A DNA stretch of 64,000 nt from positions 10,754 to 74,753 of the forward strand of contig NZ_JBARWZ010000147.1 in the NCBI RefSeq assembly GCF_049647105.1, given 5' to 3'. The notes under the pieces are model-generated. The model was given only the letters and a program-made list of their open reading frames with translations, had not been told where the DNA came from and searched no databases. Shown in pieces: positions 637-43,652 of this stretch. Made by a program: the position numbers and the translations under genes. This stretch comes from Actinophytocola sp. (GTDB taxonomy: Bacteria > Actinomycetota > Actinomycetes > Mycobacteriales > Pseudonocardiaceae). The stretch's first letter is position 1. Each line of letters opens with the position of its first letter.

Positions 637-1404
637 CTATCTCGGCGAACCCGCGGCAACCGACTGGGCGTGCGCGCGGAGCCTGGTGAGGATCTCCGGC
701 ACGATGTCGTTGAGGTAGAAGTGCCCGCCGGGGAACACGGACAGCTCGAAATCACTCTCGGTGTGCTCGCGCCACGCATCGGCCTCGGCGACCGTCACCT
801 TGGGATCGTTGTCGCCGGTGAGCGCGTAGATGGGGCAGCGGAGCTTCGGGCCGGGGCGGTGGGTGTAGGTCTCCGCGGCCGTGTAGTCGCCTCGGATCGC
901 CGGCATGACCATGGCCAGGACGTCTTCGTCGTCGAGCAGCTCGGCCTCGGTGCCGCCCAGCTGCTTCATGGCGGCGAGCAGACCGGCGTCGTCACGCAGG
1001 TGGATGCGCTCGACACGGGAGCGGTGTGGCGCGGGCCGGCCGGATGCAAACAGGGCGGTCGGTATGATACCGGACTGCTCCAGACGGCGGGCAACCTCGT
1101 AACCGAGTGTCGCGCCGAGGCTGTGGCCGAAGATCGTGAGCGGGCGGTCGGTCAGCGGCGCGATGGCCGCCGCCAGACCGTCGGCGAGGTCGTCGATCGA
1201 GCGCAGGACCGGCTCACGGCGCCGGTCCTGGCGGCCGGGGTACTGCACGGCCAGCACGTCGACCTCGGGCGCGAGTGCCCTGGAGACACCGAAGAAGTAA
1301 CTGGCCGAGCCGCCAGCGTGCGACAGGCACAGCAACTGGGTCTCGGCGTCATCCGCCGGATGGAACCGCCGCACCCACAGGTCGGTGTCGGTCATCTCGC
1401 TCAC
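637..1404 (-). CDS. Type II (editing) thioesterase, alpha/beta hydrolase
   Basis: 255-aa ORF with a GHSLGA nucleophile elbow and an N-terminal LLCLSHAGGSASYF motif typical of PKS/NRPS-associated TEII. The track start is GTG 1404. The ATG at 1395 lies 7 nt after GAGGTG and may be the real start. Confidence 0.9.
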   Translation of the reverse strand: MSEMTDTDLWVRRFHPADDAETQLLCLSHAGGSASYFFGVSRALAPEVDVLAVQYPGRQDRRREPVLRSIDDLADGLAAAIAPLTDRPLTIFGHSLGATLGYEVARRLEQSGIIPTALFASGRPAPHRSRVERIHLRDDAGLLAAMKQLGGTEAELLDDEDVLAMVMPAIRGDYTAAETYTHRPGPKLRCPIYALTGDNDPKVTVAEADAWREHTESDFELSVFPGGHFYLNDIVPEILTRLRAHAQSVAAGSPR

Positions 1405-1491
1405 CTCGGGATTTTCACAGGAAAAGGTGTCAACAGAGCAAACGGGCTCAACACCGGCCCCCGACCCGGTGTTGAGCCCGCACCTGTCGCC

Positions 1492-1677
1492 TCAGGAAAC
1501 GACGGTGCCGTTGCCCGCGGAGTGGCCGTCCGACCAGCTGATCGTGGTCGGGGCTACCGCGGTCAGACCGGAGTTGGTCCAGCTGTCCAGCACATCGATG
1601 CTGATGCTACCGGCGGCAGGCGCCTCGGCGCCGCTGAAGAAGAAGGAACGGAGAATCTCGCTCGTGGCGGTGGACAT
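1492..1677 (-). CDS. Small 61-aa hypothetical protein (Ser/Thr/Gly-rich C-terminal half, no Cys)
   Basis: ATG at 1677 is preceded by GAGGAGAC about 5 nt upstream; the longer 75-aa track ORF has no RBS. Third codon positions are almost all G/C, like neighbouring genes. Product MSTATSEILRSFFFSGAEAPAAGSISIDVLDSWTNSGLTAVAPTTISWSDGHSAGNGTVVS; no family recognised. It lies 87 bp upstream of, and co-oriented with, the thioesterase gene. Confidence 0.55.
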   Translation of the reverse strand: MSTATSEILRSFFFSGAEAPAAGSISIDVLDSWTNSGLTAVAPTTISWSDGHSAGNGTVVS

Positions 1678-1803
1678 GGGGAGTCTCCTCGGGGTTCGTT
1701 TTGCGAGAGCGGGGAGCAACCGCTGGTCTCAAATCTGCGCCATCAGGGTGGTCCGGGACAAGTTCCGTGCTCATCGTTCGCCTGGGTTTCTCACCCGGAC
1801 AAC

Positions 1804-1886
1804 CCGTGAATCGCTCATATCGACACTGAGCAACCGCCTTGCTACCGTGGGTGTCCGCTGTGGCGTCCCCGACCGTGAATCGCTCA
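1804..1886. promoter_or_regulatory. Two perfect copies of CCGTGAATCGCTCA (1804-1817 and 1873-1886) in the divergent promoter region
   Basis: Exact 14-bp direct repeat, 69 bp start to start, between the small-ORF/TEII operon and the SARP/PKS operon. The binding factor is unknown. Confidence 0.35.
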
Positions 1887-2015
1887 CCGCCACCGTTTCC
1901 GTTGTTCACACCGGAATGCGTGAGGTGGGACCGTTCCTCGAGGGCGTCCCGGGATGGAACCATTGCCGTGCCGACATTGCCGGCTGGGGGCATTTCCAGA
2001 CTCGGAGTAAAGCCC

Positions 2016-2789
2016 ATGAGGTTTTCTGTTCTCGGGAGTATCGAGGTCACGACCGACACCGCCCCACTCGAACTGGGCGGGGTCAAACAGCGTGCGATCC
2101 TCGGCTACCTCGTGCTCCACGCGAACAAGGTGGTGCCGACCAGCCGTCTGCTACAGGCCATGTGGGACGGTGTCCCGCCGCCGACCGCACGCAAGATGAT
2201 CCAGAACGCGGTGTCGGGGATCCGTCGTGTCCTCAATGGACCGCACGCCGAGGGCCCTTCGTCGCTGCGCACCCACCCGCCCGGCTACCAGCTGCACGTG
2301 GACACCGACTCCGTCGACCTGCACCGGTTCCGCGCGCTCGCACGGGACGGCAGGGCGGCCATCGCAGGCGGCGAACCGGAGCGGGGCGGTGAACTGCTGC
2401 GCTCCGCGCTGTCGCTGTGGCGCGGGCGTGCGCTCGCCGACCTGGTCGAGGCCGGCTACCGGTGGTCGGAGCTGACCGCCGTCGAGGACGAGCGTCTGTC
2501 CACTTTGGAGGATCGGCTGGACGCGGAGCTGGTGTGCGGCAGGCACCGGGAGATCACCCCGGAGCTGGAGGTGCTGACCGCGACCGAACCGCTGCGGGAA
2601 CGGCTGTGCCATCAGTTCATGCTGGCGCTCTACCGGTCCGGCAGGCAGGCGGACGCGCTGCGGGTCTACCGGCGCACCAGGGAGGCGCTGGTCGACAGCC
2701 TCGGCCTCGAACCGGGACGCGACCTCCAGGAGCTCCAGCAGCGGATTCTCGACCACGACGCCGCGATCCAGGCCGTCACCAGTAGTTGA
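2016..2789 (+). CDS. SARP-family transcriptional activator (winged-helix + BTAD)
   Basis: ATG 2016 has GGAG 8 nt upstream; the track start at 1839 is an unsupported extension. MRFSVLGSIEV...GGVKQRAILGYL is the OmpR-type DNA-binding domain. It is followed by a BTAD (LWRGRALADL ... LALYRSGRQADALRVYRRTREALVDSLGLEPG). Confidence 0.9.
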   Translation: MRFSVLGSIEVTTDTAPLELGGVKQRAILGYLVLHANKVVPTSRLLQAMWDGVPPPTARKMIQNAVSGIRRVLNGPHAEGPSSLRTHPPGYQLHVDTDSVDLHRFRALARDGRAAIAGGEPERGGELLRSALSLWRGRALADLVEAGYRWSELTAVEDERLSTLEDRLDAELVCGRHREITPELEVLTATEPLRERLCHQFMLALYRSGRQADALRVYRRTREALVDSLGLEPGRDLQELQQRILDHDAAIQAVTSS

Positions 2790-2880
2790 CGAGTGCCGGG
2801 CTCCTCGCCGGTTACCGGTCAATGAGTGGTGAGGGTCAGCATGGGCCCTGGTACCAACGACTTCTAGCGAGGCCTACGAC

Positions 2881-5800
2881 ATGCCGCGTACCGAACTGCT
2901 CCGACCGCTACCCGAGTTGCTCAGCGAGAACGCGAGCCGGTATGGCGAACGGGTCGCGTTCGCCGACTCCCGGCGCACCGTGACGCACGCCGACCTGGCG
3001 ACGCGCACGGCGCGGTTGGCAGGCCACCTCACCGATCTCGGGGTGTGGCCGTCGGACCGCGTCGCCGTCCTCCTCGACGGCGCGGACGGCGTCGCCGCGG
3101 TGGAGAGCATCGTGGCGATCGGCAGGTCGAGCGCCATCGCCGTGCCGCTCGACCCGGCACTCGACGACACCGAGCTGGCCCGGCTCGTCGCGGACAGCGG
3201 CGCCGACACGGTCATCACCGGCGCGGCGCTCGCGCACCGGGTCACCGCGCTGGCACCCGCGCCGCAGAACGTGATCGTCGTGGGCGGCCCGGCCGACGGG
3301 ACCACCGCGTCGTTCGAGGAGCTGGCGACCACCGAACCCGATTCGGCTCCGAACGACGACCTCGCGCTGGACGACCTGGCCTTCCTGGTCTACACGGCGG
3401 GCACGACCGGCCCGCGCAAGGGCGTGCTGTCCACGCAACGCAACGCGCTCTGGTCGATGGCCGCCGCGTACGCGCCGGTCGTCGGACTGTCCGAAGAGGA
3501 CAGTCTGCTGTGGCCGCTGCCGGTGCACGGCGGGCTCGCGCACCACCTGGCCGTACTGGCCCCGATCGTGGTCGGCGCCTCGGTGCGGTTCGCGGACCCG
3601 GTGGACCTGCTGGCAGCACTGGCCGACAGCACCATCGTCGCGGGCACCCCACGAATCCTCGCCACGCTCCTGGACTCCCCCGCGCCCAACCTGCGCGCCG
3701 GGCTCGCGGTCGGCGCGGCGAGCGACGCGGACCTGCGCACGAACTTCGCATCGGCGTTCTCCGCGCCGCTGCTGGACGTCTACACCACCACCGAGACCTG
3801 CGGCCCGGTCGCGCTGACCTGGCCGCGCGGCGAGGACACCCAGGCTTCGCGCTGCCTGCCCGTGCCGGGCCTGAGCGTGCGCATCGTCGACCCGCTGACC
3901 GGCACCGACATGGGTACCGGCCAGGAGGGTGAGCTGTGGGTCAGCGGCCCGAACGTGATGGCCGGCGGCTACCACAACCTCCCCGACGCGACGGCGTCCG
4001 TGCTGCGCACCGGCTGGTACCGCACCGGTGACCTGGCCCGCCGCGACGAGTCCGGCTACCTGACGGTCACCGGCAGGCTCTCCGACGTCATCGTGGTCGG
4101 CGACGAGCGGGTGCGCCCGGAGCGGGCCGAGGCCGTGCTGCGTGCCGTGGCCGGTGTGACCGACGCCGCGGTGGCGGGACGGCCCGATGACGAGCTTGGT
4201 GCCACCGCGGTCGCGTTCGTCGTCGGCGAACCCGACCCGGCTGCCCTGCTCACCGCGTGCCGCGACCAGTTGCCGCCCGCCGCGGCGCCGGTCGAGGTGT
4301 TCGCCGTGCCCGCGATCCCGCGCACGGCGGCCGGTGAGATCAGCAGGCACCGCCTGCTCGACCTCCCCGCCCGCCTGCTCGCGACCACCGCCACCGGCGA
4401 GCTGTTCACGCTGGACTGGGAACCGGTCGCGAACGCGGTCGACAGCGAACCCGGCGACTGGGTCCTGGTCGGCCCCGGCGCCCTCGCGACCGACACCGAG
4501 GTGTTCGCCGACACCTATCCGGACCTGCCCGCGCTGGCCGAGGCCGTCGCCGCCGGGCGGGCCGCCCCTGACGTCGCGTGCGTCGAACTGGACGCCGACG
4601 GCATGCCACCCGGTGAACCGCGTGCGTTCCTCGCCGACGAGCAGGTCGCGGTGACCCGGCTCGTGTTGCTGACCCGGGGTGCCGTGCACGCCGGTGGTTA
4701 CTCCCCCGAGCCGGGGCTGGCCGCCGCGTGGGCGCACGCGCGGGAGATCCAGAAGCGCTACCCGTGCCGCATCGCGCTCGTCGACGCCGACGCCGTTTCC
4801 CCGCACGCGCTGCGTGGCGCCGTGGGGTCCGGGCACGACGAGGTCGCGATTCGGGTGGAAGACCTGCTGCGACCCCGTTTCACCCCCGTCCCCGCCACCA
4901 CGGGCGGTCAAGCGCTCGGCGGCACCGCCGTGCTGGTCGGCAAGGCGGACGAGGTACTGGCCCGGCACCTGACCGAGGCACACGGCACGACCGTCGTCAC
5001 GGCGGAGGACGCCGCCGCGCTGGCCGCGATCCTCGCCGACCGCACCGGGGGCGCCGCGGTCACGGCCGTGGTGTGCACCGACCCCGAGCCGGGCACCGCG
5101 CAGTTCGCGCACGAGCAGACCCTCGCGCTCGACCTGTCCGCGTTCGTGCTGCTGACCACCGGTTACGACACCCCCGCGACCGCGTTCGCCGACGCGCTGG
5201 CCCGCCACCGCGCGGTGCTGGGCCTGCCATCGGTCGCGATCACGTGGTCCCCGACGGGTTTCCTGACACTGCCGGAAGACCGCCGCACGGCCATGTTCGA
5301 CCTGGCGCTGGCCGCCGGCGCGCCGAGCGTGGTCGCGGCACGCAGGAACGAGCTGGCCACCGGGTCGACCGCGATGCTGAACGCACCCGGCGCCGAGGCG
5401 ACGCTCGCCGCGTTGCGGGACCGGCTGCTCACGCAGACGGCGGCCGACCGGACGCGGACCGTGCTGGACCTCGTGCACACCGAGACGATCGCGGTCCTCG
5501 ACAGCCAGGCACCGGCCACGCTGGACGCCGAGACCCCGTTCCGGCAGCTGGGTTTCGACTCGCTGGCCGCCGTGCAGCTGCGTGGCAGACTGTGCGCCGC
5601 CACCGGTCTCGACCTGCCCGCCACCCTGATCTTCGACTACCCGACCCCGGACACGCTGGTCGAGCACCTGCTGGCCGAACTGGGCGTCGGCGACGTGACC
5701 GAGCAGGCCACCACCACCGTCACCGCGCGGTACGACGACCCGATCGCGATCGTCGGCATGGGCTGCCGCTTCCCGGGTGGCGTGCGTACCCCGGACGAGC

Positions 5801-8800
5801 TGTGGCAGCTGGTGGTCGACGGCGTCGACGCGGTGTCCGCGTTCCCGACCGACCGAGGCTGGGACCTGGCCGCGCTGTTCGCAGGCGACGGGCCGGGCAC
5901 GATCAGCGCGCAGGCGGGTGGTTTCCTGCACGACGCCGCCGACTTCGACGCGGAGTTCTTCGGCATCAGCCCCCGCGAGGCGCTCGCCATGGACCCGCAG
6001 CAGCGGCTGCTCCTGGAGACCTCGTGGGAGGCCCTGGAGCGCGCGGGTATCGACCCGACCGGCTTGCGCGGCACCGACACCGGCGTGTTCGCAGGCGTTC
6101 CGGTGCAGCACTACGGCCGGGGCGGGCACGCTGAGGAGGACGGTGTCGAGGGGTTCCTCATCACCGGCATCGCGAGCAGCGTCGCGTCCGGCCGCATCGC
6201 CTACGTGATGGGCCTCGAGGGCCCGGCGATGACCGTCGACACGGCGTGCTCGTCGTCGCTCGTGGCACTGCACCTCGCGGTGCAGGCGCTGCGCTCCGGT
6301 GAGTGCTCCCTCGCGATCGCGGGTGGCGTGACCGTGATGTCCGGGCCCGAGACGTTCACCGAGTTCTCCCGCCAGGGCGGCCTGTCGCCGGACGGCCGGT
6401 GCAAGGCGTTCTCCGAGGATGCCGACGGCACCGGCTGGTCCGAGGGCGCGGGCATGCTGGTCGTGGAACGGCTGTCCGACGCGCAGCGCAACGGGCACCA
6501 GGTGCTGGCCGTGCTGCGCGGCACCGCGATCAACCAGGACGGCGCGTCGAACGGGCTGACCGCGCCGAACGGGCCGTCGCAGCAGCGGGTCATCCGGCAG
6601 GCACTCGCCAACGCCGGGCTCGCCGCGTCCGATGTGGACGCGGTGGAGGCGCACGGCACCGGCACGATGCTCGGTGACCCGATCGAGGCGCAGGCCCTGC
6701 TGGCGACCTACGGGCAGGACCGAGACCGGCCGCTGTGGCTTGGGTCGCTGAAGTCCAACATCGGCCACGCTCAGGCCGCGGCCGGGGTCGGCGGTGTCAT
6801 CAAGATGGTGATGGCGCTGCGCAACGAAGTGCTGCCCAGGACGCTGCACGTCGGGGAACCGACGAAGAAGGTGAACTGGTCGGCTGGTGCGATGAGCCTG
6901 CTGACCGAGCCCGCCGAGTGGCCTGCCGGTGCGCTGGTGCGCCGGGCGGGGGTGTCGTCGTTCGGGATGAGCGGCACCAACGCGCACGTCATCATCGAGG
7001 AGGCGCCGCCGGCCGAGGTGACCGAGCCCGCCACGACACCGCCGGTGGTGCCGTGGGTGCTGACGGCACGGTCCGAGCAGGCACTGCGGGCACAGGCACT
7101 GCGCCTCAAGTCCTTTGTGGAGTCGCGGCCCGCGCTTCTGCCCGCGCAGGTCGGGCGGTCGCTGCTGGACACCCGCGCGCGGTTCGACCACCGGATGGTG
7201 GTGACCGGCGCGGACCGGGACGACCTGCTGGTGGGGCTCGTGTCCGGGACGCCGTTCACCGGTGCGTCCGGCAAGCTGGCGGTGCTGTTCACCGGCCAGG
7301 GCGCACAGCGCGCCGCGATGGGACAGCGGCTGTACGGGGCGTTCCCGGTGTTCGCGGCCGCGTTCGACGAGGTGTGCGCACACTTCGACCCGGGTCTCCG
7401 CGACGTGATCGAGTCAGGAGAAGGGCTCGACGACACCGGCAACACCCAGCCGGCACTGTTCGCGATCGAGGTCGCGCTCTACCGGCTGCTGGAGTCGTGG
7501 GGGGTGCGGCCCGACTACCTGGCCGGGCACTCCATCGGTGAGCTGGCCGCCGCGCACGTCGCGGGCGTGTGGTCCCTCGAGGACGCCTGCACGGTCGTCG
7601 CCGCACGCGGGCGGCTGATGCGGGAACTTCCCCGTGGTGGCGCCATGATCGCCATCCAGGCCACAGAAGCGGAGATCATCCCGCACCTCACCGACACGGT
7701 CGACATCGCCGCGATCAACGGGCCGGACTCGCTCGTGATCTCCGGCGACGAGGGCGCCGCGCAGGCCATTGCCGCCGTGTTCACCACGCAGGGCCGCAAG
7801 ACCAAGCAGCTCACCGTCTCCCACGCGTTCCACTCGCCGCTGATGGACCCGATGCTCGGCGAGTTCCGGGCCGTCGCGGAAAGCGTGACCTACCACGAGC
7901 CCGCGATCCCGATCGTCGGCGCGGAGCCGACCGACCCGGAGTACTGGGTGCGGCACGTCCGCGGCACGGTCCGGTTCGCCGACGCCGTCGCCGCGCTGGA
8001 GGCCGCCGGGGTCCGCACGTTCGTCGAGGCCGGGCCCGACGCGGTGCTGACCGCGCTGACCGGCAGCCCCCAGGCGATCCCGCTGCTGCGGGCGAACCGG
8101 GACGAGCTGCGGACCGTCGCCGACGCGTTCGGCCGCCTCGCCGCGGTGACCACAGTGGACAGTGCGGCGTTCTTCCCCGGCGCGGGCGTGGTCGAGCTGC
8201 CCACCTACGCGTTCCAGCGCCGCTCGTACTGGCTGCGGCCCGCCAACCTCGGTGACCTCGGCGCGGCCGGGCTCACCGCGACCGGCCACCCGCTGCTCGG
8301 CGCGATGCTCGGGGTCGCCGACTCCGACCGGCTCGTGCTGACCTGGCGGCTCTCGCTACAGGCGCAGCCGTGGCTCGCCGACCACGCCGTGCTCGACTCG
8401 ATCCTGTTGCCTGGCACCGCGTTCGTGGAGCTGGCTGGCCGCGCCGCCGAGTACAACGGGCACGCCGCCATCGAGGAGCTGACGCTGCGGGCACCGCTGC
8501 GGCTCACCCACGAGACGCCGATGGACCTGCAGGTGTGGACCGGTCGGCCCGACGAGCACGGCCGCCGCACGGTCGAGGTGTACTCGCGCCCGGCGGACAG
8601 CGGCGGTGGCACTGACGGAGAGTGGACCTGTCACGCGGCGGGTGTCCTCACCGACGACGAGGTCGCCGCACCGGCCACTGTGGACACCGAGTGGCCGCCA
8701 TCGGGTGCGGAACCCGCCACGACAGGCGACTTCTACGACTGGTTGCTGTCCCGCGGCTTCACCTACGGCCCGGCGTTCCAGGGCGTGCAGGACGTGTGGC

Positions 8801-15681: not shown

Positions 15682-15810
15682 CCCCCGCCCCGCAGGGCGC
15701 GATGCTGATCAGGCGCTTTCAGGACGTCGAACGCCTCAAAGCGCCTAATCAGGGACATCCGCATCGCATCCCGAGAAGGGCGCAAGCCCGCCACCAAGGG
15801 GCTCCCTTCC

Positions 15811-15855
15811 ATCCCGGAGACCTGCCCCTCCGGCGAAGAGCCGCCGGAGGCAAAC
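15811..15855 (+). repeat. 45-bp dispersed intergenic element, copy A (contains hairpin CCTCCGGCG-N6-CGCCGGAGG at 15827-15850)
   Basis: atcccggagacctgcccctccggcgaagagccgccggaggcaaac matches 38082-38126 at 43 of 45 positions. It lies between the convergent PKS and membrane-protein genes, so it probably acts as a bidirectional terminator. ccggaggcaaac recurs at 15870-15881. Confidence 0.6.
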
Positions 15856-15909
15856 CCAGTGAGAAGCCCCCGGAGGCAAACCGGTGAGGCAAAACGCAAG
15901 CAGGCTCGG

Positions 15910-16425: not shown

Positions 16426-16493
16426 GGCGACCTCCCTGAACAGCGCGGGAGGCGCGCCCGGACAACTCCAGGACGCGCCTCCCGCGGCAGGTC

Positions 16494-27238: not shown

Positions 27239-27244
27239 TAGTAC

Positions 27245-35400: not shown

Positions 35401-36312
35401 AGCCACCCGCAGCCACAGGGGGACCACGTTGGTCACCATGCACGGCACCCGCAGCGACACCGACCCGATGCGGGCCATCACCGGCACCGCGAACACCAGG
35501 TCGGTCGCGCCGGTCATCCGGTGCAGGTAGGCGGCGAACGTGGCGGTGAGCACCTCGCTCCACGTGGCGTCCGCGCCGGACGCGGTGTGCTTCAGCGCCG
35601 CGAGGTCCGCGTCGTCGAGATCGGCGCTCTCCCGCACGACGGTGTGTGCCAGCTTGCCGGACCGGGGCGCGAGCACCACCGGCACGGGTTTGCCCTCCGC
35701 CTTGCCCACCCAGAAGTCACGGTCCTCGGCGAAGCGCGGCGAGTCCAGGTACGCCAGGTCCTCGGCCACCACGTCGGCCAGCTCGCCGAAGCCGCTCGGT
35801 CCCGGCTCGGTGCCCGCCGCGAGCGCGGTGTAGACCTCCGCGACCCGCCGTGCGACGAGCGCAAGGCCGTAGCCGTCGAGTGCGATGTGGTGGACTCGCT
35901 GGTACCACAGGAAAAGTTCCGGTCCCGCCCGGAACAGGGTCTGCGCGAACACCGGGCCACGGCGCAGGTCCACCGGCACCGCGAGGTCCGCACGCATCCA
36001 CGCCAGCGCCGCGGCGACGGGATCGGTCTCCCCGGCCACGTCGACCACCGCCATCGTCCATTCCGGACAGCGGCCGGTCTCCTGCCATGCCTTACCGTCG
36101 GCGTCGGTGCCGAAACACAGCGACAGCGCGTCGGTCTCGCCGACGGCCGTGCGCACGGCCCGTTCGAACAGCGGAACGTCCACCGGGCCGCGGATCTCCA
36201 CGTACTCGGCGGTGTTGAAGGCGGGACTGTCCGGATCGAACTCCTGGCCGGTCCAGATGCCCTCCTGTGCGGTGGTCAGCGCGAGCCGCCGCACATCCTG
36301 GCGCTCACGCAT
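32473..36312 (-). CDS. Single-module NRPS, C-A-T-TE
   Basis: ATG 36312 overlaps the carrier-protein stop by 8 nt. C domain VHHIALDGYG. A domain [30 protein letters not shown] and NGKLDR. T domain FFSLGGHSLLVGRL. The C-terminal thioesterase has LLGASFGGLVAHE and a distal HHG. Confidence 0.93.
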   Translation of the reverse strand: MRERQDVRRLALTTAQEGIWTGQEFDPDSPAFNTAEYVEIRGPVDVPLFERAVRTAVGETDALSLCFGTDADGKAWQETGRCPEWTMAVVDVAGETDPVAAALAWMRADLAVPVDLRRGPVFAQTLFRAGPELFLWYQRVHHIALDGYGLALVARRVAEVYTALAAGTEPGPSGFGELADVVAEDLAYLDSPRFAEDRDFWVGKAEGKPVPVVLAPRSGKLAHTVVRESADLDDADLAALKHTASGADATWSEVLTATFAAYLHRMTGATDLVFAVPVMARIGSVSLRVPCMVTNVVPLWLRVAPGASLVDLTRQVTGELRAGRPHLRYRYEQLRRDLKLVASERKLFGPSVNIMPFDYDLRFSGHRGVVHNVSAGLVEDLVLHVYDRADGSGLRIVVDANPNCYTADEVATHLRRFLTFLRRVTAASSGPVIDVDLLLDGELRTLLTEWNDTTRYVPPVTVPDLLEERAAATPDRTALVADDDTFTFDELNRRANRLARLLVEEGAAPECYAGLLLPRTADAIVALFAVLKAGAGYVPIDPDHPARRIALTVADSAPEVLLTTEALREAAEAAADGVVRVVVLDDPATATRLDGLSDRNVTDGERHAPLIPGNPACLIHTSGSTGVPKGVVIEHSGLVNLFHHHRDTLIRPNSEGRTIRAALSASLSFDTSWEGLLWLLDGHELHFVGEDVRREPAAMLDYIDEWRIDFLDITPTYAEELVTAGLLAEGRHRPSVVALGGEAAGPALWTALRAVPDIATYNLYGPTECTVDTLHCRVADSPDPVVGRPIANTRAYVLDEAQHLVPPGVVGELYFAGAPVARGYHERPGITAERFVEDPFGLPGERMYRTGDLARWRPDGTLEFLGRADDQVKVRGFRIEPGEVEQVLSGHDSVAQCAVVVRDGRLVAYVVPGESAPEPATLRQYAAQRMPDYLVPPAYVVVDRLPRNTNGKLDRAALPAPDPAALTTGRPPRDRREAVLCGMFAELLGIETIGIDDDFFSLGGHSLLVGRLIGRIRAEFGVRLGIRAVFEAPTVATLAPRLTAHVDEGAFDTLLPLRTNGSRPPLFCVSPATGLAWSYAGLLARLPDRPLYGLQLVGADRHAGVAEVAEELVRHIRTVRPSGPYHLLGASFGGLVAHEVAAQLEEQGHEVALLALLDSFPFPAAMRDRPPPTEDEFAAMVPDADGIGAFDRLYRAYTHSARIGASWTPRRVACDVHLFAATRDKPPEWPGPETWESHVDGRMDVYHVAATHHGMTEADALEVVGAVLAGAHGVERKAS

Positions 36313-36709: not shown

Positions 36710-37582
36710 TCAGGCGGCCGCGTCGTTGTCGTACACGGTCACCCGGTAGGAAACAGCGGGCTCCGGCGTGGCGGTGTGCAGAGCACGGTGGACGAGGGTG
36801 CGGTTGTCCCACACCAGCATGTCGCCCTTCTCGAAGGTCTGCAGGTGAATGTTCTCGTGCTCGTAGGTCCGGTCCAGCTGCCCGGAGGAGGCCAGCAGCT
36901 CCTTCAGCAGGTCCGCACGGTCGTTGCCCTTGGCGTCCTGGACGGAGAGGGTGAAGCCCTCGCTGACGTACAGGATGGTCTCGTCCGTGAACGGGTGCTT
37001 GACCGCGGTCGCGTCCGTCACCGGCGGCGTCTTGGCGTTGACCTCCTCGATGATCTCCGAGATCGGCCGGTAGACGTCGGTCGGGCGGATCTTGAAGTAC
37101 CGCAGCACGCTGTGCGTCGCCGTGGTGTCCTTCACGATCTCCTTCAGCTCCGCCGACAGCTGCTCGTAGGCCGCTGCCATGTTGATGAAGTACGTGCCGC
37201 GGTTCTTCGTCGGCACCACCTGCGGGTAGATCAGCGTGAGGTCGAACGGACGGGGCATGAACTGGTAGTCGGAGTGCCAGAACTTGCCGGTCTTCGGCAC
37301 GCCGACCTGGCGGCCGTCCTCCTCCTTCACGTTGGAGGAGACGAAGACCTCCTTGACCTCCGGGTGGTGGTAGACCGGCTCGTAGTACTCGGCAACCTCG
37401 CCCATGCTCTTGCCCAGCGCCAGGAACTGCTCCGGGTCCAGGTCCTGGTTCTTCAGCACGGCGATCTTGTTGGTGTAGACGGCTTTCTTCAGCTCAGCGA
37501 TGTCCTCGGCCGAGGCCGTCGCCGCGTTGAAGCCCTCGACGACGACGCCGAACTTCTTGCCGACCTGCGGGGTAATTTTCAT
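36710..37582 (-). CDS. TauD/TfdA-family Fe(II)/2-oxoglutarate dioxygenase, Rv0097/ScoE-like isonitrile synthase
   Basis: ATG 37582 lies 7 nt after AAGAGGA, giving 290 aa; the track start at 37663 is an extension. [66 protein letters not shown] and [15 protein letters not shown] line up block for block with my recollection of Rv0097. Confidence 0.88.
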
Positions 37583-37689: not shown

Positions 37690-37718
37690 GTAGTCGTACC
37701 GGAAGATCCAGTGGTTCC
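37690..37718 (-). promoter_or_regulatory. Candidate ECF-type promoter GGAACC-N16-CGACTAC(T) for the isonitrile/NRPS/transport operon
   Basis: The minus strand reads gggGGAACCactggatcttccggtaCGACTACTtacacgag. The -35 is at 37718-37713 and the -10 at 37696-37690. It lies about 100 nt upstream of ATG 37582. The -35, spacing and 8-nt -10 block are identical to 27210-27239. Confidence 0.6.
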
Positions 37719-38126: not shown

Positions 38127-38181
38127 AACCGCCGGAGGCAAACCCAGCGAAGAGCCGCCAACGACCCGAAAGTCCGCCGGT

Positions 38182-38982
38182 TCAGCGGCTGGCGCGGCGC
38201 TGCGCCTCGCGCATCAGATGTGAGTGACACGCGTGGACGACGGCGGCCGCGCCGTACGGGTCGTCCCGCATGACGAGGTGGCCGCTGCCGAGGATGGTCG
38301 TGTGGCGGGCGTGTGGCACCAGCCGCGCGGCGTGCCGGGCGTCGCACCTCGGGACGACGCGGTCCTGGTCGGCCCACACCAGGTTCACTGGCGTGCCCGC
38401 CAGCCGCTCCGGCGCGGCGAACACGTAGTGGCAGGCGAAGTCCGTGAGCACGGCGAGGTCGTTGCCGACCATCGCGTGGACGTCGGCGGCCGCGATGTCC
38501 GCCTCGATGGCGGCGGGCCGGGCCGACAGCCCCGACATGATCACCCGGTGGAACACCGGGCTGTCGAGCAGCCGCCCGCGCACGACCGGGCCGACCGCGC
38601 GCATCACCCGCATGAGCGCCCCCACCTTGGCACGGCACATGGCGGTGCGGGTCGTCGCGTGGAAGCCGATGGCGCAGAAGGCGGTCACGGCCGCCACCGG
38701 CACCCGGCACGCCAGCTCGAGCGCGACGGCGGCGCCGAGCGAGTGGCCGACGACGTGCGGCCGGTGCAGGCCGAGCGCGGCGATCCTCGCCGCCACGTGT
38801 GCCGCCAGCGCGGGCACCGCGTCGCGGTCGTGGGTGCCAGGGCCGGGCACCTCGATCGAGACCGTGCGCGCGAACCCCGGGATGCGGGCGGCGACCTCGT
38901 CCCAGCTCGTCCGGTCCAGCCCGGCACCGTGCAACAGCAACAACGTCGGGTTGCCGTCCGTGCTCCGCAGAGGCGCGGCCAT
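38182..38982 (-). CDS. Alpha/beta-fold hydrolase
   Basis: ATG 38982 follows GAGGGGGGA. LLLLHGAGLD and the nucleophile elbow VVGHSLGAAVA are present, with a distal GSGHLVM His motif. Confidence 0.85.
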   Translation of the reverse strand: MAAPLRSTDGNPTLLLLHGAGLDRTSWDEVAARIPGFARTVSIEVPGPGTHDRDAVPALAAHVAARIAALGLHRPHVVGHSLGAAVALELACRVPVAAVTAFCAIGFHATTRTAMCRAKVGALMRVMRAVGPVVRGRLLDSPVFHRVIMSGLSARPAAIEADIAAADVHAMVGNDLAVLTDFACHYVFAAPERLAGTPVNLVWADQDRVVPRCDARHAARLVPHARHTTILGSGHLVMRDDPYGAAAVVHACHSHLMREAQRRASR

Positions 38983-39075
38983 GGCAGTCCCCCCTCGTGA
39001 TCCCCTGATCGACATGGATACATGCGTGGGTGGTGTGGCCGGCGTCGCGGTCACACCACCCACGGGGTTGGACGA

Positions 39076-41643
39076 TCAGGACGCGGTCGCCATGGCCCTC
39101 TTCTCCACAGTGGACGGACGAGCCGGCTGCTCCGGCACGGCGCCGCCCGCCTTCGGGGTGAACGTGCGAAGGCGCAGGCTGTTGGACACCACGAACACCG
39201 AGCTGCCCGCCATGATCAAACCGGCCAGCATGGGGTTGAGCAGCCCACCCGCCGCGAGCGGGATCGCCGCGACGTTGTAGGCGAACGCCCAGAACAGGTT
39301 GGACTTGATCGTGCCGAGCGTGCGGCGGGACAGGCGGATCGCGTCCGCGACCACCCGCAGGTCACCGCGCACCAGCGTCAGGTCGGCCGCCTCGATGGCG
39401 ACGTCGGTGCCGGTGCCCATCGCCATGCCAAGGTCGGCCTGCGCGAGCGCGGCGGCGTCGTTGACCCCGTCGCCGACCATCGCGACCACGCGGCCTTCCG
39501 CCTGCAGTCGCTTGATCTCGTCCACCTTGCCGGCAGGCAGCACCTCGGCGATCACCTCGGTGATGCCGACCTCGGCGGCGACCGTCTTCGCGACGGCCTC
39601 GTTGTCGCCGGTCAGCAGGACCGGGGTGAGCCCGAGCGCACGCAGTTCCCGGATCGCCGCCACACTGGTCGACTTGACGGTGTCGGACACGACGAGCAGT
39701 CCGCGCACCGCGCCGTCCCAGCCGACCACGACGGACGTCCGGCCCTCGGCGGCGGCCGTGTCCCGCGCCGCGACGAGTTCGGCTGGCAGATCACCGGCGA
39801 GCGCGGCCCTGCCGACGACCACCTGGTGGCCGTCCACCGTGCCCCGCACGCCGAGCCCGGCCTCGTTGCCGAAGTCCTCGGCCCCGGGCAGGTCACCGAC
39901 CTTCTCGCGGGCACCGGCCGCGATGGCGCGGGCGATCGGGTGCTCGGAAGCGTTCTCCAGCCCACCAGCGAGCCGCAGCAGGTCATCGGCGTCGACACCG
40001 TCGGCCGGCACGACGTCCACGAGGGCCATCTCGCCGGTGGTGACGGTGCCGGTCTTGTCCAGCACCACGGTGTCCACCTTGCGCGTGGACTCCAGCACCT
40101 GCGGCCCCTTGATGAGGATGCCGAGCTGCGCGCCGCGGCCGGTGCCGACGAGCAGAGCCGTCGGCGTGGCGAGGCCGAGTGCGCACGGACACGCGATGAT
40201 GAGCACGGCGACCGCGGCGGTGAACGCCGCCGTCGAGGTCTCACCGGCGCCGAACCAGTAGCCGAGTGTGGCGAGCGCGAGCCCGATGACGCCGGGCACG
40301 AACACCGCGGACACCTGGTCGGCGAGCCGCTGGACCTTCGCCTTCCCGTTCTGCGCGTCCTCGACCAGCCGCGCCATCTGGGCGAGCTGGGTGTCCGTGC
40401 CGACCCGGGTCGCGCGGACGACGAGCCGCCCGCCGACGTTGACCGTCGCGCCGACGACCTCGTCGCCGTTACCCACCTCGACGGGTACCGACTCGCCGGT
40501 GAGCATGCTCGCGTCGACCGCGGAGGAGCCCTCCTCGACCACACCGTCGGTCGCGACCTTCTCACCGGGCCGCACCACGAACCGGTCGCCGACGGTGAGG
40601 TCGGTGACCGGGATGGTCACCTCGCCACCGTCACGCAACACCGCGACGTCCTTGGCGCCCAGGGAGAGCAGCGCCCGCAGCGCGGCGCCGGAGCGCCGCT
40701 TGGCCCGTGCCTCGAAGTACCGTCCACAGAGGATGAACAACGTCACCCCGGCGGCCACCTCGAGGTACATGTTGGATTCGCCCGCGGTTCGCTCGATGGC
40801 GATGCGGAACGGGTGCTTCATGCCCGGCATGCCCGCCTCGCCGCGGAACAACGTCCACAGCGACCACAGGAACGCGGAGATGGTACCGACCGAGATCAAC
40901 GTGTCCATCGTGGCGGCGCCGTGGCGCAGGTTGGCGAACGCGGCCTTGTGGAACGGGAAGGCACCCCACACGACCACGGGCCCGGTCAGCGCGAGACAGG
41001 CCCACTGCCAGTAGTTGAACTGGAAGAGCGGGAACATCGACATCGCGACGACCGGCACGGTCAGGATCGCGACGATGATCACCCGGTTGCGTGCTGACCG
41101 CAGCGCGATGTCGTGCTCGTCCACCTCGGGCGTGAGGTCCACCGCCTCGGACGCGGCCGGTGCCGGCCGTGCTGGCGGCGTCGCCGTGTAGCCGATCTCC
41201 TCGATGGCCGCCACGATGTCGGCCACCTGCACCGACGGCGAGTGCGAGACCTTCGCCTTCTCGGTGGCGTAGTTGACCGTCGCCTCGACCCCGTCGATCT
41301 CGTTAAGGTGGTTCTCCACCCGCGCCGCACACGACGCGCACGTCATCCCGCCGATGACCAGCTCGACCTGCCCGGAAGAGACGGGTGCCTGCGCCGGCTT
41401 CGGCGCCGCCTTCGGTACGGGCCTGGCGACGGGCTTCGCGGTGTAGCCGATCTCCTCGATCGCCGCGACCACGTCGGCCACCCGCACCGACGGCGAGTGC
41501 GTCACCTTCGCCTTCTCGGTGGCGTAGTTGACCGTCGCCTCGACCCCGTCGATCTCGTTCAGGTGGTTCTCCACGCGCGCCGCACACGACGCGCAGGTCA
41601 TCCCGCCGATGACCAGCTCGAACTGGTCAGCCTCCGTGGCCAT
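39076..41643 (-). CDS. Cu(I)-translocating P1B-type ATPase with two N-terminal HMA domains
   Basis: Two [12 protein letters not shown] metal-binding domains, the CPC transmembrane motif ([13 protein letters not shown]), [17 protein letters not shown] and a TGES-type actuator (LTGESVPV). ATG 41643 follows GGAGGGG and overlaps the upstream gene by 17 nt. Confidence 0.93.
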
Positions 41644-42631
41644 GAGTAGCCCCTCCCGTGCTTCCGCCGCCGCTGCTCGGGCCACCCGGCGCCGCGCTGT
41701 TGCCACCCGACAGGTTGATGGCCTTGGCCTGCTCGAACACCTCGGGCGTCAAGCCGTGCGGGGGCGGGTTCGGGCCCTCGACGTTGACCGTGAACTCGGC
41801 GGTGCGGACCTTGCCCTGGTGCTGGAAGTCCAGGAACAGTCGGTAGGGGCCGTACGACGGCGCGGTGGCGTAGAAGTCGACCGTCGGGCCCGGTGCCGTC
41901 TTCCCGTCGCCGGGCGAGCCGTCCGGGTGGACGTGGATGTAGGCCATGTCGCCACCACGCAGCATCACCAGGTGGCCGTACGCGGCCAGGTACGGCTCGA
42001 GGTCGGTGACGGGCTTGCCGTTCTTCGACACGTGCATCGTCAGCTTGGCGTCCGCGCCCGGCTTGAGCTTGCCGCTCAGCGTCACCGTGTAGCCGTCGAC
42101 CGTCGCGGTGTTCGACGGCGCGGGCAGCGCCTTGGGTGCGTAGTTGCCCGCCACGTTGATGTCCATGCCGAGCGTGGTGTTGTGGATACCCCAGCCGGGG
42201 AAGAAGTCCGCGAAGATCCGGTATGTCCCGGCCTCGGGGAAGGTCACCGGGATCCGCCAGGTGCCGTCCGCGCCCATGTTCGGGTGGATGTGCTGGAACC
42301 CGGAGAGGTCGCTCCGCGCGATGACCAGGTGCAGCAGCTTGTCGTGCTGCGCCTTGTACTGCATCAGCGGCGTGCCCTCACGTTCCTGGATCTGGAAGGC
42401 GAGGATCTGCTCCTCGCCTGCCTTCCAGTTCTCGTTGAGCACCTGAATCGTCAGGCTCTCCTCGGAGACCATGAGGCCACCAGGGCCATGCTCCTCCGCG
42501 GCGGGAGCTGCGACGGGCGCGGCGGCCGCCTCGGTGGGCGGCGGACCCACGATGCGACCGACCACGTAGGCGCTCGTGAACACCAGTATCAGGGCAACGA
42601 CAAAGGCCCCGAGCTTGGTCAGCGTTTTCAT
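41627..42631 (-). CDS. Membrane-anchored extracytoplasmic protein with conserved His motifs and a Gly/His tail (putative metal-binding partner of the ATPase)
   Basis: ATG 42631 begins [18 protein letters not shown], a signal anchor. HIHPNMG and YIHVHPDG motifs are present, and the C-terminus is [13 protein letters not shown]. Translationally coupled to the Cu-ATPase. The family is not recognised with certainty. Confidence 0.6.
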
Positions 42632-42812
42632 CAGAACCGTCCTATGTGGACAACAGGCAACCGGAATTGACCAGAACGGTACGCAGGGGAGGTATACGAG
42701 GTCCACGCCGAACGGGGCCGCTACAGACCGATTCGAGAAAAGGAAGACCGCTCTCCAGCAGTGAATTACCGGACACTGCGCATCCACTGGGTGTGCGGTT
42801 ACCATCGGCCTC

Positions 42813-43652
42813 ATGGCAGAGGCTCGCGGACGCAGGAACCCCAGACCGAAGCTCGCACAGGTGTCCCGTGTGGAGCGGCTCACACCGCACATGACCCGGG
42901 TGGTGCTGGGCGGCGACGGTCTCGCCGAGTTCACCGTGGGCGGGTTCACCGACCACTACGTCAAGCTACTGTTCCCGCCGGAGGGTGTCACCTACCCCGA
43001 GCCGTTCGACATGCGGTGGATCCGGGAGGAGCTGCCGAGGGAGCAGTGGCCGAGGATGCGCACCTACACCGTGCGCCGGTGGGACGCCGAGACCCGCGAG
43101 CTGGCCATCGACGTGGTCCACCATGGCGACGAGGGCATCGCGGGCCCGTGGGCGGCCCGGGTCCGGCCGGGTGACGAGATCCGGTTCAACGGCCCGGGCG
43201 GCGGCTACGCACCGTCCGCAGCCGCCGACTGGCACCTGCTGGCCGGCGACGAGAGCGCACTCCCCGCGATCGCCGCGACACTGGAGAACCTGCCCCCGGA
43301 GGCCCGCGCGCACGCGTTCATCGAGGTCAGCGCCCCCGACGAGGAGCAGAAGCTCGCACCGTCGTCGGGTGAGGCCACGATCACCTGGCTGCACCGCGGC
43401 GGCGCCCCCGTCGGCGAGGCACTGGTCCGCGCGATCACCGACCTGGACTTCCCACCCGGCGAGGTCCAGGCCTTCGTCCACGGCGAGGCGACCTTCGTCA
43501 AGGAGCTGCGCAGGCTCCTCCTGGTCGAGCGCGCCATCCCCCGCGACCGCGTGTCGATCTCCGGCTACTGGCGCATCGGCCACGACGAGGACCGCTGGCA
43601 GGCAACCAAGCAGGACTGGAACCGCCAGGTAGAAGCAGAACAAACCCCCTGA
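42813..43652 (+). CDS. Siderophore-interacting protein (ViuB/SIP-type FAD-binding reductase)
   Basis: AQVSRVERLTPHMTRVVLGG...FTDHYVKLLFPP...RTYTVRRWD is the FAD-binding_9 domain. A SIP C-terminal domain follows (LLAGDESALPAIAATLE, FVHGEATFVKELRRLL). Confidence 0.85.
   Translation: MAEARGRRNPRPKLAQVSRVERLTPHMTRVVLGGDGLAEFTVGGFTDHYVKLLFPPEGVTYPEPFDMRWIREELPREQWPRMRTYTVRRWDAETRELAIDVVHHGDEGIAGPWAARVRPGDEIRFNGPGGGYAPSAAADWHLLAGDESALPAIAATLENLPPEARAHAFIEVSAPDEEQKLAPSSGEATITWLHRGGAPVGEALVRAITDLDFPPGEVQAFVHGEATFVKELRRLLLVERAIPRDRVSISGYWRIGHDEDRWQATKQDWNRQVEAEQTP

Follow-up and report, generated by a model that had tools for sequence, protein, structure and literature searches.

A stretch of 64,000 nucleotides from Actinophytocola sp. 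(contig NZ_JBARWZ010000147.1; hereafter the window, with an actinomycete-like G+C content of ~70%) holds a biosynthetic locus, about 43-45 kb long, that is inherited as one unit. We interpret this locus as derived from the canonical isonitrile chalkophore cluster of the ScoA-E/SF2768 type, with a mechanism proposed below and a separate cassette for a peptide that is made by the ribosome and modified after translation (RiPP), and this interpretation as a whole is held at roughly even confidence. Isonitrile chalkophores are used for copper acquisition by mycobacteria and streptomycetes, and to our knowledge very few of their structures are known. From the gene content, the product can reasonably be expected to be a new isonitrile-bearing metallophore. 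The new features of the locus are the location of ScoC and ScoD in a block that is linked to a Streptomyces antibiotic regulatory protein (SARP) and to a polyketide synthase (PKS) lacking a thioesterase (TE), a nonribosomal peptide synthetase (NRPS) that ends in a TE, a YcaO/SagB cassette with its precursor, and a likely isonitrile hydratase nearby. The peptide cassette is the most original element.

Genes were called by the G+C content of third codon positions (GC3) and domains were taken from Pfam and NCBIfam scans of the window (Table 1). The isonitrile lipopeptide (INLP) locus of Streptomyces avermitilis, L040 in our numbering of loci, served as the canonical reference and was compared with the window gene by gene. 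Every gene named in an earlier note on this DNA is present at, or a few codons from, the coordinates given there, and both hotdog peptide strings that it quoted were found. Its five core functions are genuine counterparts of ScoA-E and Rv0097-0101 as determined by family, Protein Data Bank (PDB) matches, and identities to L040, and by these measures all five INLP enzymes have orthologues in the window. The ScoE-type Fe(II)/2-oxoglutarate enzyme exceeds the cut-off of 400 bits for the NCBIfam equivalog NF049937 (461 bits), matches PDB ScoE at E 4e-122 as opposed to ~1e-75 for the mycobacterial long-chain enzymes, and aligns with PDB ScoE at the HxD...H iron ligands and the substrate-binding residues. 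It is 63% identical to the L040 enzyme and 92% identical to that of Actinophytocola sp. KF-1, and it falls inside the ScoE clade. Five pocket positions could be placed, and they read EGF at P1-P3, S at P4, and Y at P6, as in short-chain ScoE; this EGF/S/Y pocket is invariant in 18 aligned sequences, which include Actinophytocola, Saccharothrix, Micromonospora, and Actinoplanes. A published isonitrilase predictor relates the EGF/S/Y pocket to methyl/propyl substrates, and the pocket is present in the PKS-associated enzymes AecA and AmcA (PMC11811631). The ScoC-like ligase shares 62% identity over all 528 aa with the ligase that follows FcoT in L040; it scores 264 bits against the FadD10 equivalog, missing the cut-off of 726, and FadD10 is its fifth-best PDB match. 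The acyl carrier protein (ACP), which is free-standing, is 47.5% identical to the ACP preceding the NRPS in L040. The hotdog protein matches PDB entries 5wsx/5wsy (E 5e-49), which are deposited as 'Uncharacterized protein' and which we take to be SAV606, and Rv0098 (E 8e-29). Placement of the hotdog protein with ScoD stands at the level of the ScoD/FcoT family, within which it forms its own subclade: identity is 66-94% inside the clade (94% between the window and A. glycyrrhizae) and roughly 50% to Streptomyces ScoD (52% to L040), and members carry an additional N-terminal extension of about 20-30 aa. For membership of the INLP class, the expected features of ScoE, ligase, and ACP were found, and neither a reductase-terminated NRPS nor a contiguous five-gene operon was. 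Four of the five core proteins qualify on their sequences, and the hotdog protein is a ScoD/FcoT family member with an equivalog score under the cut-off. The division of the core into two blocks is as the earlier note described: ligase and FcoT lie at 16.5-18.8 kb and NRPS, ACP, and ScoE at 32.5-37.6 kb, separated by 13.7 kb and ten genes.

This arrangement is conserved. When one genome per species was scanned, the hotdog clade turned up in 24 species, and their loci were annotated with the window proteins. A 20-kb core with the order ABC transporter-(anti-sigma)-sigma-histidine kinase-response regulator-SagB-YcaO-SARP 2-FcoT-ligase-PKS is present in 20 of the 24; four Micromonospora loci have no sigma match. 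The 20 species belong to Actinophytocola, Saccharothrix, Actinosynnema, and Micromonospora, and their proteins are 59-98% identical to those of the window, which itself stands nearest to Actinophytocola. SARP 2 is immediately 5' of FcoT in 23 of the 24 loci, the exception being L031. The ScoE side was checked in two genomes, Micromonospora sp. KLBMP9576 (L032) and Actinophytocola sp. KF-1 (L033), and in both the cluster continues in the order YtkA-like, Cu-ATPase, hydrolase, ScoE, ACP, NRPS(TE), major facilitator superfamily (MFS) transporter, importer, and then kinase or sigma. An assembly artefact is excluded because the KLBMP9576 record is a complete chromosome, and the arrangement is not due to chance because the core order recurs in 20 of 24 species. 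Judged by this recurrence, the arrangement of roughly 43 kb is inherited as one unit. The exceptions are L014 and L019, which do not have the YcaO block, and A. oryzae L023 and L006, which feature a beta-ketoacyl-ACP synthase III (KASIII) and a 3-hydroxyacyl-CoA dehydrogenase near FcoT/ligase (after SARP 1 in L023, 5' of SARP 2-FcoT in L006). No PKS was seen in the available sequence of L023 or L006, and L006 ends just past the ligase. The deviations of these four loci indicate that modules can be shuffled. At positions 497-3904, L032 also encodes a PvcA/DIT1-type isocyanide synthase, a second TauD-family dioxygenase, and a UbiA prenyltransferase; these genes lie directly 5' of the NUDIX-KASIII/YtkA-like/Cu-ATPase end, so that a second, mechanistically unrelated isonitrile pathway stands beside the ScoE-type one.

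The importer and Cu-ATPase had been regarded as novelties interleaved with the core, which does not hold, since the canonical S. avermitilis locus has homologues of both. L040 begins with Cu-ATPase, a PCuAC/LpqE-like protein, and an extracytoplasmic function (ECF) sigma factor; further on are Asp/Arg-hydroxylase, MFS, KASIII, ACP, ScoE, FcoT, and ligase, followed by ACP, an NRPS with condensation, adenylation, thiolation, and reductase domains (C-A-T-R), binding protein, FecCD, and ATPase. Identity to these L040 proteins is 66% for the importer ATPase, 54% for the FecCD permease, 56% for the binding protein, 58% for the Cu-ATPase, 51% for the ECF sigma factor, and 31% for the MFS transporter. 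The Cu-ATPase scores 536 bits against TIGR01511 (cut-off 397) and 593 bits against TIGR01525 (cut-off 346), and the MFS gene directly follows the NRPS in L032 and L033 as it does in the window. An MFS transporter and a siderophore-type importer have been tied to SF2768, and the importer is reported to take up Cu-SF2768 (PMC13500777), while in M. tuberculosis SigC drives nrp and ctpB (PMC7924339). By homology, importer, MFS, Cu-ATPase, and ECF sigma are standard parts of a canonical INLP cluster, and the locus is therefore less exotic than first thought; as a target for discovery it is still well supported.

A promoter motif, GGAAC-N17-CGACTA, was found by aligning the regions upstream of ScoE from three genomes. 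It has exactly two matches in the window, where 0.01 are expected. The motif is kept in 16 related loci; 5' of the anti-sigma gene it lies at the matching position in 14 related loci, and 5' of ScoE it is conserved in L001, L032, and L033. In the canonical L040 it precedes both the biosynthetic operon and the importer. Genes between ScoE and the ABC ATPase, both included (37582 down to 28070), overlap or almost touch, and this stretch has the appearance of a single operon under ECF control. When one mismatch is allowed there is no third site in the cluster, including the regions 5' of FcoT/ligase, PKS, and Cu-ATPase, so the FcoT/ligase/PKS half is not visibly part of the ECF regulon; an ECF regulon shared by both blocks is accordingly not supported. 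The proposal that each block has a different regulator is thereby supported, with the ECF motif found only before the ScoE operon and the anti-sigma gene, and FcoT/ligase following a SARP. The adjoining sigma/anti-sigma pair has been lost in some Micromonospora members (L027, L028, L030, L032); L032 keeps the motif 5' of ScoE without an adjacent sigma gene, which implies that the cognate ECF sigma is elsewhere in the KLBMP9576 genome. A conserved pseudo-palindromic block, GTGGACCTCGTATACCTCCCC(T/C)GCGTA, lies 5' of the YtkA-like/Cu-ATPase genes at 42680-42720 (-) of the window and at about 5100-5140 of L033. Because the ECF motif is absent there, the YtkA-like/Cu-ATPase pair may be under a different, perhaps copper-sensing, repressor.

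The PKS begins with a loader that is a CoA-ligase-type AMP-binding domain (aa 15-485), and its PDB matches are acyl-CoA ligases. A PDB sequence search with the loader linker (aa 500-870) gave no match; internal BLAST against the module ketoreductases (KRs) identified it as a degenerate KR, which can be aligned to KR2 (E 1e-11) but no longer has the NADPH-binding motif. The degenerate KR is followed by an ACP, two modules of ketosynthase (KS), acyltransferase (AT), dehydratase (DH), KR, and ACP domains, and an acidic docking-like tail, with no TE. The DH is present in both modules, which amends the earlier description. Both KSs keep the Cys-His-His triad, both ATs read HAFH, and both KRs read (L/V)DD. 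By established motif rules, HAFH and (L/V)DD denote malonyl extender units and B-type reduction, and the predicted product of the PKS is a (2E,4E)-dienoyl-ACP. The size of the PKS varies from one protein of 4266 aa in the window to 1735 + 3454 aa or more in Micromonospora. An Rfam scan of the whole window returned only two matches above the gathering threshold, both to the ASpks 'TB sRNA' (6685-6753 and 11602-11670, minus strand), and these were rejected as evidence of an sRNA because they lie exactly over the coding sequence of the KS active sites and reflect conserved KS sequence.

The NRPS terminus is a TE and not a reductase (Pfam Thioesterase, E 4e-24), as had been stated; L032 and L033 also have the TE, and the L040 enzyme has NAD_binding_4. 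The C-A-T part, to which the comparison is limited, is 42% identical to the S. avermitilis C-A-T-R enzyme, and the protein carries the HHxxxDG and GxSxG motifs. The best NCBIfam match of C-A-T is MxcG, with 902 bits over model positions 4-1043 and a cut-off of 2300. MxcG, from the myxochelin pathway, acylates both lysine amines with a carrier-bound acid and has been used as a model for SfaD (PMC13500777). In the window enzyme the reductase of MxcG is replaced by a TE, and the acyl donor is not dihydroxybenzoate. The adenylation code, read by hand, is DTEDAGLVDK compared with DTEDVGTVAK in S. avermitilis; because 7 of 10 positions are identical and acidic residues occupy 239 and 278, we infer a Lys/Orn-type amino acid as the substrate.

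Relative to canonical INLP/SF2768 clusters (S. coeruleorubidus scoA-E, S. thioluteus sfa, the S. avermitilis SAV606 locus, and M. tuberculosis Rv0096-Rv0101), the window shares ScoE, ScoD/FcoT, ScoC, the free ACP, and the MxcG-like C-A-T, as well as the MFS transporter, ABC importer, Cu P-type ATPase, SigC-like sigma, and promoter motif (PMC13500777; PMC7924339). It differs in that a distance of 13.7 kb separates ScoC and ScoD, which follow a SARP and adjoin a PKS, from the other core genes, and in that the TE-ended NRPS has no reductive release. The window also adds the 12.8-kb PKS, the RiPP/two-component cassette, an alpha/beta hydrolase, and a second SARP. A homologue of the lysine hydroxylase (Asp_Arg_Hydrox-type) of canonical clusters was not found in the window. 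In the open literature, to which the search was confined (subscription papers and MIBiG were outside it), nothing was found that describes a ScoE-type cluster from these genera, or one that has a YcaO cassette or that joins a TE-ending NRPS to a PKS, and the claim that no characterized cluster has the same architecture stands within that scope. The combination of a PKS with INLP genes is not unprecedented, since it is preceded by amycomicin/aerocyanidin (PKS with ScoB-E) and by cremimycin (TE-less PKS with an FcoT-type enzyme).

In the proposed pathway the isonitrile is formed first and the PKS acts second, an order that is favoured tentatively and at somewhat short of even confidence. The ligase, ACP, and ScoD-like enzyme would add glycine to a short 2-enoyl thioester, and ScoE would then turn the glycine adduct into a short beta-isocyano acid, e.g. 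3-isocyanobutanoate. The CoA-ligase-type loader of the PKS would accept this free acid, and its extension by two malonyl units with full KR/DH processing would give an isocyano-2,4-dienoyl chain. The MxcG-like C domain would move the chain onto the Lys/Orn-type amino acid and the TE would release a free acid or lactam, from which we infer an isocyano-dienoyl-Lys/Orn acid or lactam as the final structure. The MFS transporter would export the product, which would bind copper and be re-imported by the ABC system, and the nearby isonitrile hydratase-like enzyme could detoxify or recycle the isonitrile. That the product chelates copper (or zinc) and serves its uptake is suggested by gene context, in the form of the homologous importer, MFS transporter, and Cu-ATPase and the SigC-like regulon. 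The precedent for ScoB-E with a PKS is amycomicin/aerocyanidin, where a short isonitrile acid is made and then extended by a PKS (bioRxiv 10.1101/317362), and the PKS-associated isonitrilases AecA and AmcA act before chain extension (PMC11811631). Those systems resemble the window in their ScoB-E homologues, PKS, and short-chain isonitrilase pocket (bioRxiv 10.1101/317362; PMC11811631). They differ in having no NRPS and in P450s that form the epoxy-isonitrile of FabH-targeting antibiotics, whereas the window includes an NRPS together with a complete set of genes for copper uptake and regulation, and no P450 domain was found among the window open reading frames (ORFs) scanned. Additionally, a KASIII with 74-75% identity to those of L023 and L006 coexists with the PKS in Micromonospora, which argues that the PKS is not simply an enoyl supplier.

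Several observations weigh against this interpretation of the locus. The hotdog protein scores 213.5 bits against the NCBIfam ScoD equivalog (cut-off 250), and the best NCBIfam match of the ECF sigma, SigC, has 196 bits, just below the cut-off of 219. Three of the ten adenylation-code positions, hand-read, are unlike the canonical code, and the ECF motif does not extend to the FcoT/ligase/PKS half. The core of the candidate RiPP precursor, PTT[IV]SW, has Thr/Ser and no Cys, and it is 18 kb from YcaO. No crotonate-supply genes were found in the window and no partner for the docking-like tail of the PKS is evident. The adjacency of FcoT, ligase, and PKS, with a TE-less PKS ending in DH-KR-ACP, follows the logic of cremimycin, and the free-standing ACP remains coupled in translation to the NRPS, like its counterpart in canonical clusters.

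The last two points bear on a reverse, cremimycin-like order within the same cluster, which is the best supported alternative and a serious one, although less likely than not. Here the PKS would supply a 2,4-dienoyl-ACP, the FcoT-type enzyme would perform glycine addition and hydrolysis, ScoE would form the isonitrile on this longer acid, and the ligase would load the product onto the free ACP for the NRPS to couple with the amino acid. The FcoT-ligase-PKS adjacency is found in about 21 of 24 genomes, and the overlap of ACP and NRPS genes is retained from the canonical pathway. In cremimycin biosynthesis the TE-less PKS CmiP2-4 makes an enoyl-ACP and the FcoT-type enzyme CmiS1 off-loads it by glycine addition (PMC11284099), and in the window the N-terminal extension of FcoT could dock to the PKS tail. 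The presence in L023 and L006 of KASIII and 3-hydroxyacyl-CoA dehydrogenase near FcoT/ligase, with the PKS unseen in the available sequence, would also fit this order; the argument that the PKS replaced these enzymes was down-weighted because KASIII and PKS coexist in Micromonospora, and this orthologous KASIII itself speaks against the reverse order. The short-chain EGF/S/Y pocket of ScoE does not co-vary with PKS size across genera (PMC11811631). A CoA-ligase-type loader implies a starter larger than acetate and hence at least a C4-alkenyl group, whereas the pocket accepts up to propyl. The published PKS-associated isonitrilases also precede chain extension (PMC11811631). The likeness to cremimycin is limited to a TE-less type I PKS giving an enoyl-ACP and a glycine-adding thioesterase of the FcoT/SAV606 type (PMC11284099). 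Cremimycin uses the FAD glycine-oxidase homologue CmiS2 to produce a beta-amino acid for a macrolactam PKS, whereas the window has ScoE at that step; no CmiS2-like DAO/FAD-oxidase was matched among the scanned genes at 1-48 kb, and there is no macrolactam PKS.

It is improbable that the region is a genomic island of independent neighbouring clusters that travel together, namely an SF2768-like diisonitrile chalkophore cluster using crotonate, a polyketide cluster, and a RiPP cluster. Each block does have its own type of regulator (ECF promoter with the ScoE operon, SARPs with PKS and FcoT, a two-component system with YcaO), and parts occur separately: the YcaO cassette without INLP genes in L034, L035, and L041, FcoT-ligase without YcaO block or PKS in L023, and FcoT-ligase without the YcaO block in L014 and L019. 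The ScoE pocket also predicts the same C4 unit as in canonical clusters. Against this, the gene order is kept at 59-98% protein identity across two families, which presumably belong to different actinomycete orders. In nearly all members ScoC and ScoD have been cut out of the ECF operon and now lie between SARP and PKS; the PKS lacks its own release domain, and the RiPP precursor and YcaO bracket the PKS-FcoT block.

The YcaO/SagB pair had been counted as part of the metallophore pathway; its simplest reading is as a self-contained cassette that brings its own precursor. The YcaO protein scores 134 bits against TIGR03882 (cut-off 37) and 262 bits against TIGR03604 (cut-off 219) and ends in ...NPIPLFV, and SagB scores 159 bits against TIGR03605 (cut-off 78). 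Both enzymes feature leader-binding domains, of the thiazole/oxazole-modified microcin (TOMM) type in the cyclodehydratase and of the ThcOx RiPP recognition element (RRE) type in the dehydrogenase. The flanks of YcaO were searched for a precursor by looking for conserved small ORFs, by inspecting all six frames, and by aligning 17 loci with MAFFT; beside YcaO, in the gap between SagB and the response regulator, and in the 590-bp gap between kinase and sigma there is no conserved ORF and only genus-level DNA conservation. YcaO/SagB homologues with 55-62% identity occur in other Pseudonocardiales. Kibdelosporangium and Actinokineospora have the order small ORF (62-69 aa)-YcaO-SagB-HisKA_3 kinase-LuxR regulator, and in Actinopolyspora a kinase and a SARP-like gene are 5' of a 72-aa ORF, whose stop overlaps the YcaO start, followed by YcaO-SagB-regulator. 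These outgroup cassettes (L034, L035, L041) all have a HisKA_3 kinase adjoining YcaO-SagB, and they adjoin differing, non-isonitrile clusters.

The small ORFs adjoining YcaO in the outgroups have the leader motif IDxLDxW in common, and a regular-expression search for it matched five small ORFs in all sequence examined, one of which is the 61-aa ORF between SARP 1 and the type II thioesterase (TEII) of the window. This ORF has a coding signal (GC3 0.87, and a GAGGAG ribosome-binding site before the start) and four metagenome orthologues of 74-82% identity in the same SARP 1-peptide-TEII position. Substitutions relative to the four orthologues number 63/59/154 by codon position, a pattern that points to purifying selection. 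The peptide is 41% identical over 54 aa to that of Actinopolyspora (pairwise E 1e-9; core APTTISW versus SPTTVSW), and its leader motif is also that of the peptides adjoining YcaO in Kibdelosporangium and Actinokineospora. No described RiPP family with an IDxLDxW leader was found in the literature searched. With these similarities, precursor, YcaO, SagB, kinase, and regulator are most simply read as a separate, portable RiPP-plus-two-component cassette, which would make an oxazole-type modified peptide and probably does not tailor the metallophore. Like TOMM/cyanobactin systems (SagCD/SagB, PatD/ThcOx type), it has a fused E1-like/YcaO protein and a SagB/ThcOx protein above cut-offs and a leader-core precursor; unlike them, its core is Cys-less with an invariant PTT[IV]SW, its precursor is 18 kb from the enzymes in the window, and it always comes with a LuxR-type regulator and a HisKA_3 kinase, while neither a protease nor a transporter belongs to it. 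That YcaO/SagB instead place an azole or amidine on the acyl-amino acid, so that the whole region gives one NRPS/PKS product, is very improbable: the pair lies between the two INLP blocks in 20 genomes and no precursor gene adjoins YcaO in these loci, but the enzymes have TOMM leader-peptide-binding and ThcOx RRE-type domains, their close homologues always adjoin a 62-72-aa ORF of which the window has a conserved homologue, and the NRPS code is of the cationic type rather than for Cys/Ser/Thr.

The sensor region of the kinase is almost wholly transmembrane, and this membrane-embedded kinase probably senses the cassette peptide or controls its production. The peptide may serve as a signal or as an autoregulated antibiotic, or may have another role. 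A more speculative and rather unlikely extension is that the cassette is a new peptide-signalling unit, in which the modified peptide is sensed by the kinase, and the regulator and SARPs switch on the adjoining cluster; here it would gate the ScoC/ScoD/PKS half, with the SigC-like ECF sigma gating the ScoE/NRPS/uptake half. Some further observations concern the cassette and its intergenic regions. The metagenome-assembled L006 encodes two precursor-type peptides (1732-1920 and 3383-3583), one window-like and one Cys-containing (…AAPAICSCIF…) and Kibdelosporangium-like, which flank a thioesterase and a NUDIX gene before an 814-aa HisKA_3 kinase, with YcaO on the same contig. Three direct repeats with 11-nt spacing lie 15-55 nt 5' of YcaO (window 20060-20100, plus strand) in every genus, with equivalent sites in L002, L004, L008-L013, L020, and L027; the heptad reads CTCAAGC in Actinophytocola, whereas Saccharothrix and Micromonospora have GCTGGAG. 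The repeats resemble a binding array for a SARP-type regulator or a response regulator, one that co-evolves with the protein binding to it. The 10-mer ATGAGTGGTG is common to the intergenic regions upstream of YcaO and upstream of the PKS. A perfect palindrome, TTGACACTTGTCAA, is present at 26458-26471, within the 590 bp that separate the stop of the ECF sigma gene from the start of the kinase gene; its form, TGACA-N3-GTCAA, is expected 0.04 times in the window and is found at the same place in L008, L009, L010, and L017, and it may be a regulator operator.

At the right edge, 1 kb past position 43652, is a probable isonitrile (isocyanide) hydratase of the DJ-1/PfpI family. Its ten best PDB matches are InhA/isonitrile hydratase (ICH) or other ThiJ/PfpI-labelled entries, with ICH at E 7e-46 compared with E 4e-24 for the next non-ICH entry, 3mgk, and the window protein keeps the catalytic Cys motif, SVCTGS. 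Actinophytocola KF-1 (L033) has a DJ-1/PfpI gene as well. The nearby ICH-like gene gives independent support for a locus that handles isonitriles. In S. avermitilis L040, a 73-aa fragment (5092-5313) resembles the C-terminal half of the hydratase and lies just downstream of two ECF motifs.

Table 1. Coordinates, strand, and supporting matches for the features of the 64-kb window.
Feature	Position	Strand	Basis
MerR-family regulator	4-609	+	Pfam MerR_1, E 6.5e-16
TEII	637-1404	-	Pfam Thioesterase, E 2e-54
61-aa candidate RiPP precursor, MSTATSEILRSFFFSGAEAPAAGSISIDVLDSWTNSGLTAVAPTTISWSDGHSAGNGTVVS	1495-1677	-	Leader/core motifs, coding signal
SARP regulator 1	1839-2789	+	Pfam BTAD, E 3e-46, and Trans_reg_C; directly 5' of PKS
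Type I PKS, 4266 aa, 12.8 kb	2881-15681	+	CoA ligase-degenerate KR-ACP plus two KS-AT-DH-KR-ACP modules, TE-less
Small membrane protein	15910-16497	-	Two hydrophobic segments
ScoC-like acyl-ACP/CoA ligase	16494-18080	-	AMP-binding, E 8e-84
ScoD/FcoT-type hotdog protein	18186-18800	-	Pfam FcoT, 193 bits (cut-off 27)
SARP regulator 2	18797-19933	-	Pfam BTAD, E 1e-40; stop overlaps FcoT start
Fused E1-like/leader-binding + YcaO cyclodehydratase	20115-22451 (ORF open from 20004)	+	Pfam YcaO, E 6e-104
SagB/ThcOx-type FMN dehydrogenase (azoline oxidase)	22481-23950	+	TIGR03605, Pfam ThcOx and Nitroreductase
LuxR/NarL-type response regulator	24109-24714	+	Pfam Response_reg and GerE; 81-98% conserved in related loci
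HisKA_3 histidine kinase	24798-25958	-	Pfam HisKA_3; hydrophobic segments over aa 21-145
SigC-like ECF sigma	26546-27121	-	Pfam Sigma70_r2 and r4_2
ECF-type promoter motif	27210-27237	+	GGAAC-N17-CGACTA, 5' of anti-sigma gene
zf-HC2 membrane anti-sigma	27245-27916	+	Pfam zf-HC2; one transmembrane segment
Siderophore-type ABC importer (ATPase; FecCD permease; binding protein)	28070-28861; 28858-30075; 29958-30989	-	Pfam ABC_tran, FecCD, Peripla_BP_2
MFS transporter, presumed exporter	30986-32479	-	Pfam MFS_1, E 5e-42
Single-module NRPS, C-A-T-TE	32473-36312	-	Pfam Condensation, AMP-binding, PP-binding, Thioesterase
Free-standing ScoB-like ACP, 83 aa	36305-36556	-	Pfam PP-binding; stop overlaps NRPS start
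ScoE-type Fe(II)/2-oxoglutarate isonitrile synthase	36710-37582	-	NF049937, 461 bits
ECF-type promoter motif	37691-37718	-	GGAAC-N17-CGACTA, 5' of ScoE-ACP-NRPS-MFS-ABC operon
Alpha/beta hydrolase	38182-39063	-	Pfam Abhydrolase_6 and Abhydrolase_1
Copper P1B-type ATPase, two HMA domains	39076-41643	-	TIGR01511, TIGR01525
Secreted/membrane-anchored YtkA-like protein	41627-42631	-	Weak Pfam YtkA match; N-terminal transmembrane segment
SIP FAD reductase	42813-43652	+	Pfam FAD_binding_9 and SIP
Probable isonitrile hydratase, DJ-1/PfpI	44685-45362	-	PDB matches InhA/ICH

Several assignments of individual genes in the earlier note are revised by these scans. The gene at its left end, 637-1404, had been called a regulator of the SARP type and is a TEII; a SARP is indeed present, and there are two. 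The ECF sigma is encoded on the minus strand, and the plus-strand ORF at 26522-27112 has no family match. The MerR gene is probably the left boundary of the cluster. It is 81% identical to a gene adjoining TEII on metagenome contig L039, and every metal-sensor equivalog scored under its cut-off against it. TEII shares its strand with the small peptide gene and lies downstream of it, a pairing that recurs in L036-L039 and L006. The small membrane protein after the ligase is 75-81% conserved in L008-L010, and its L006 counterpart has a faint Sm_multidrug_ex match; an ORF that overlaps it out of frame (15749-16465) gave no match in the Pfam/NCBIfam scan. The alpha/beta hydrolase is kept between Cu-ATPase and ScoE in L032 and L033, and the YtkA-like protein is 66% identical to the gene product preceding the ATPase in Micromonospora L032. 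The SIP reductase is present in Actinophytocola L033 and absent from L032, the sole Micromonospora locus examined on the ScoE side.

The family is carried by at least 20 species of rare actinomycetes, and the analysis predicts for them a Lys/Orn-type residue that bears a polyketide-elaborated isonitrile acyl chain and is released as an acid or lactam. A published mining of isonitrilases filtered the neighbourhoods of Fe/2-oxoglutarate enzymes for PF10862 and reported 365 isonitrilase clusters (PMC11811631). Because FcoT is about 17 genes from ScoE, mining by PF10862 neighbourhood may miss this family, which is probably not among the 365. The GGAAC-N17-CGACTA motif provides a testable handle on a SigC-type copper-starvation regulon outside mycobacteria. 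The YcaO cassette, with its newly located precursor, appears to be an undescribed RiPP family. If the signalling reading of the cassette is true, production would need both copper-related and peptide (population) signals, and the cassette would give actinomycetes a new means of controlling the expression of clusters.

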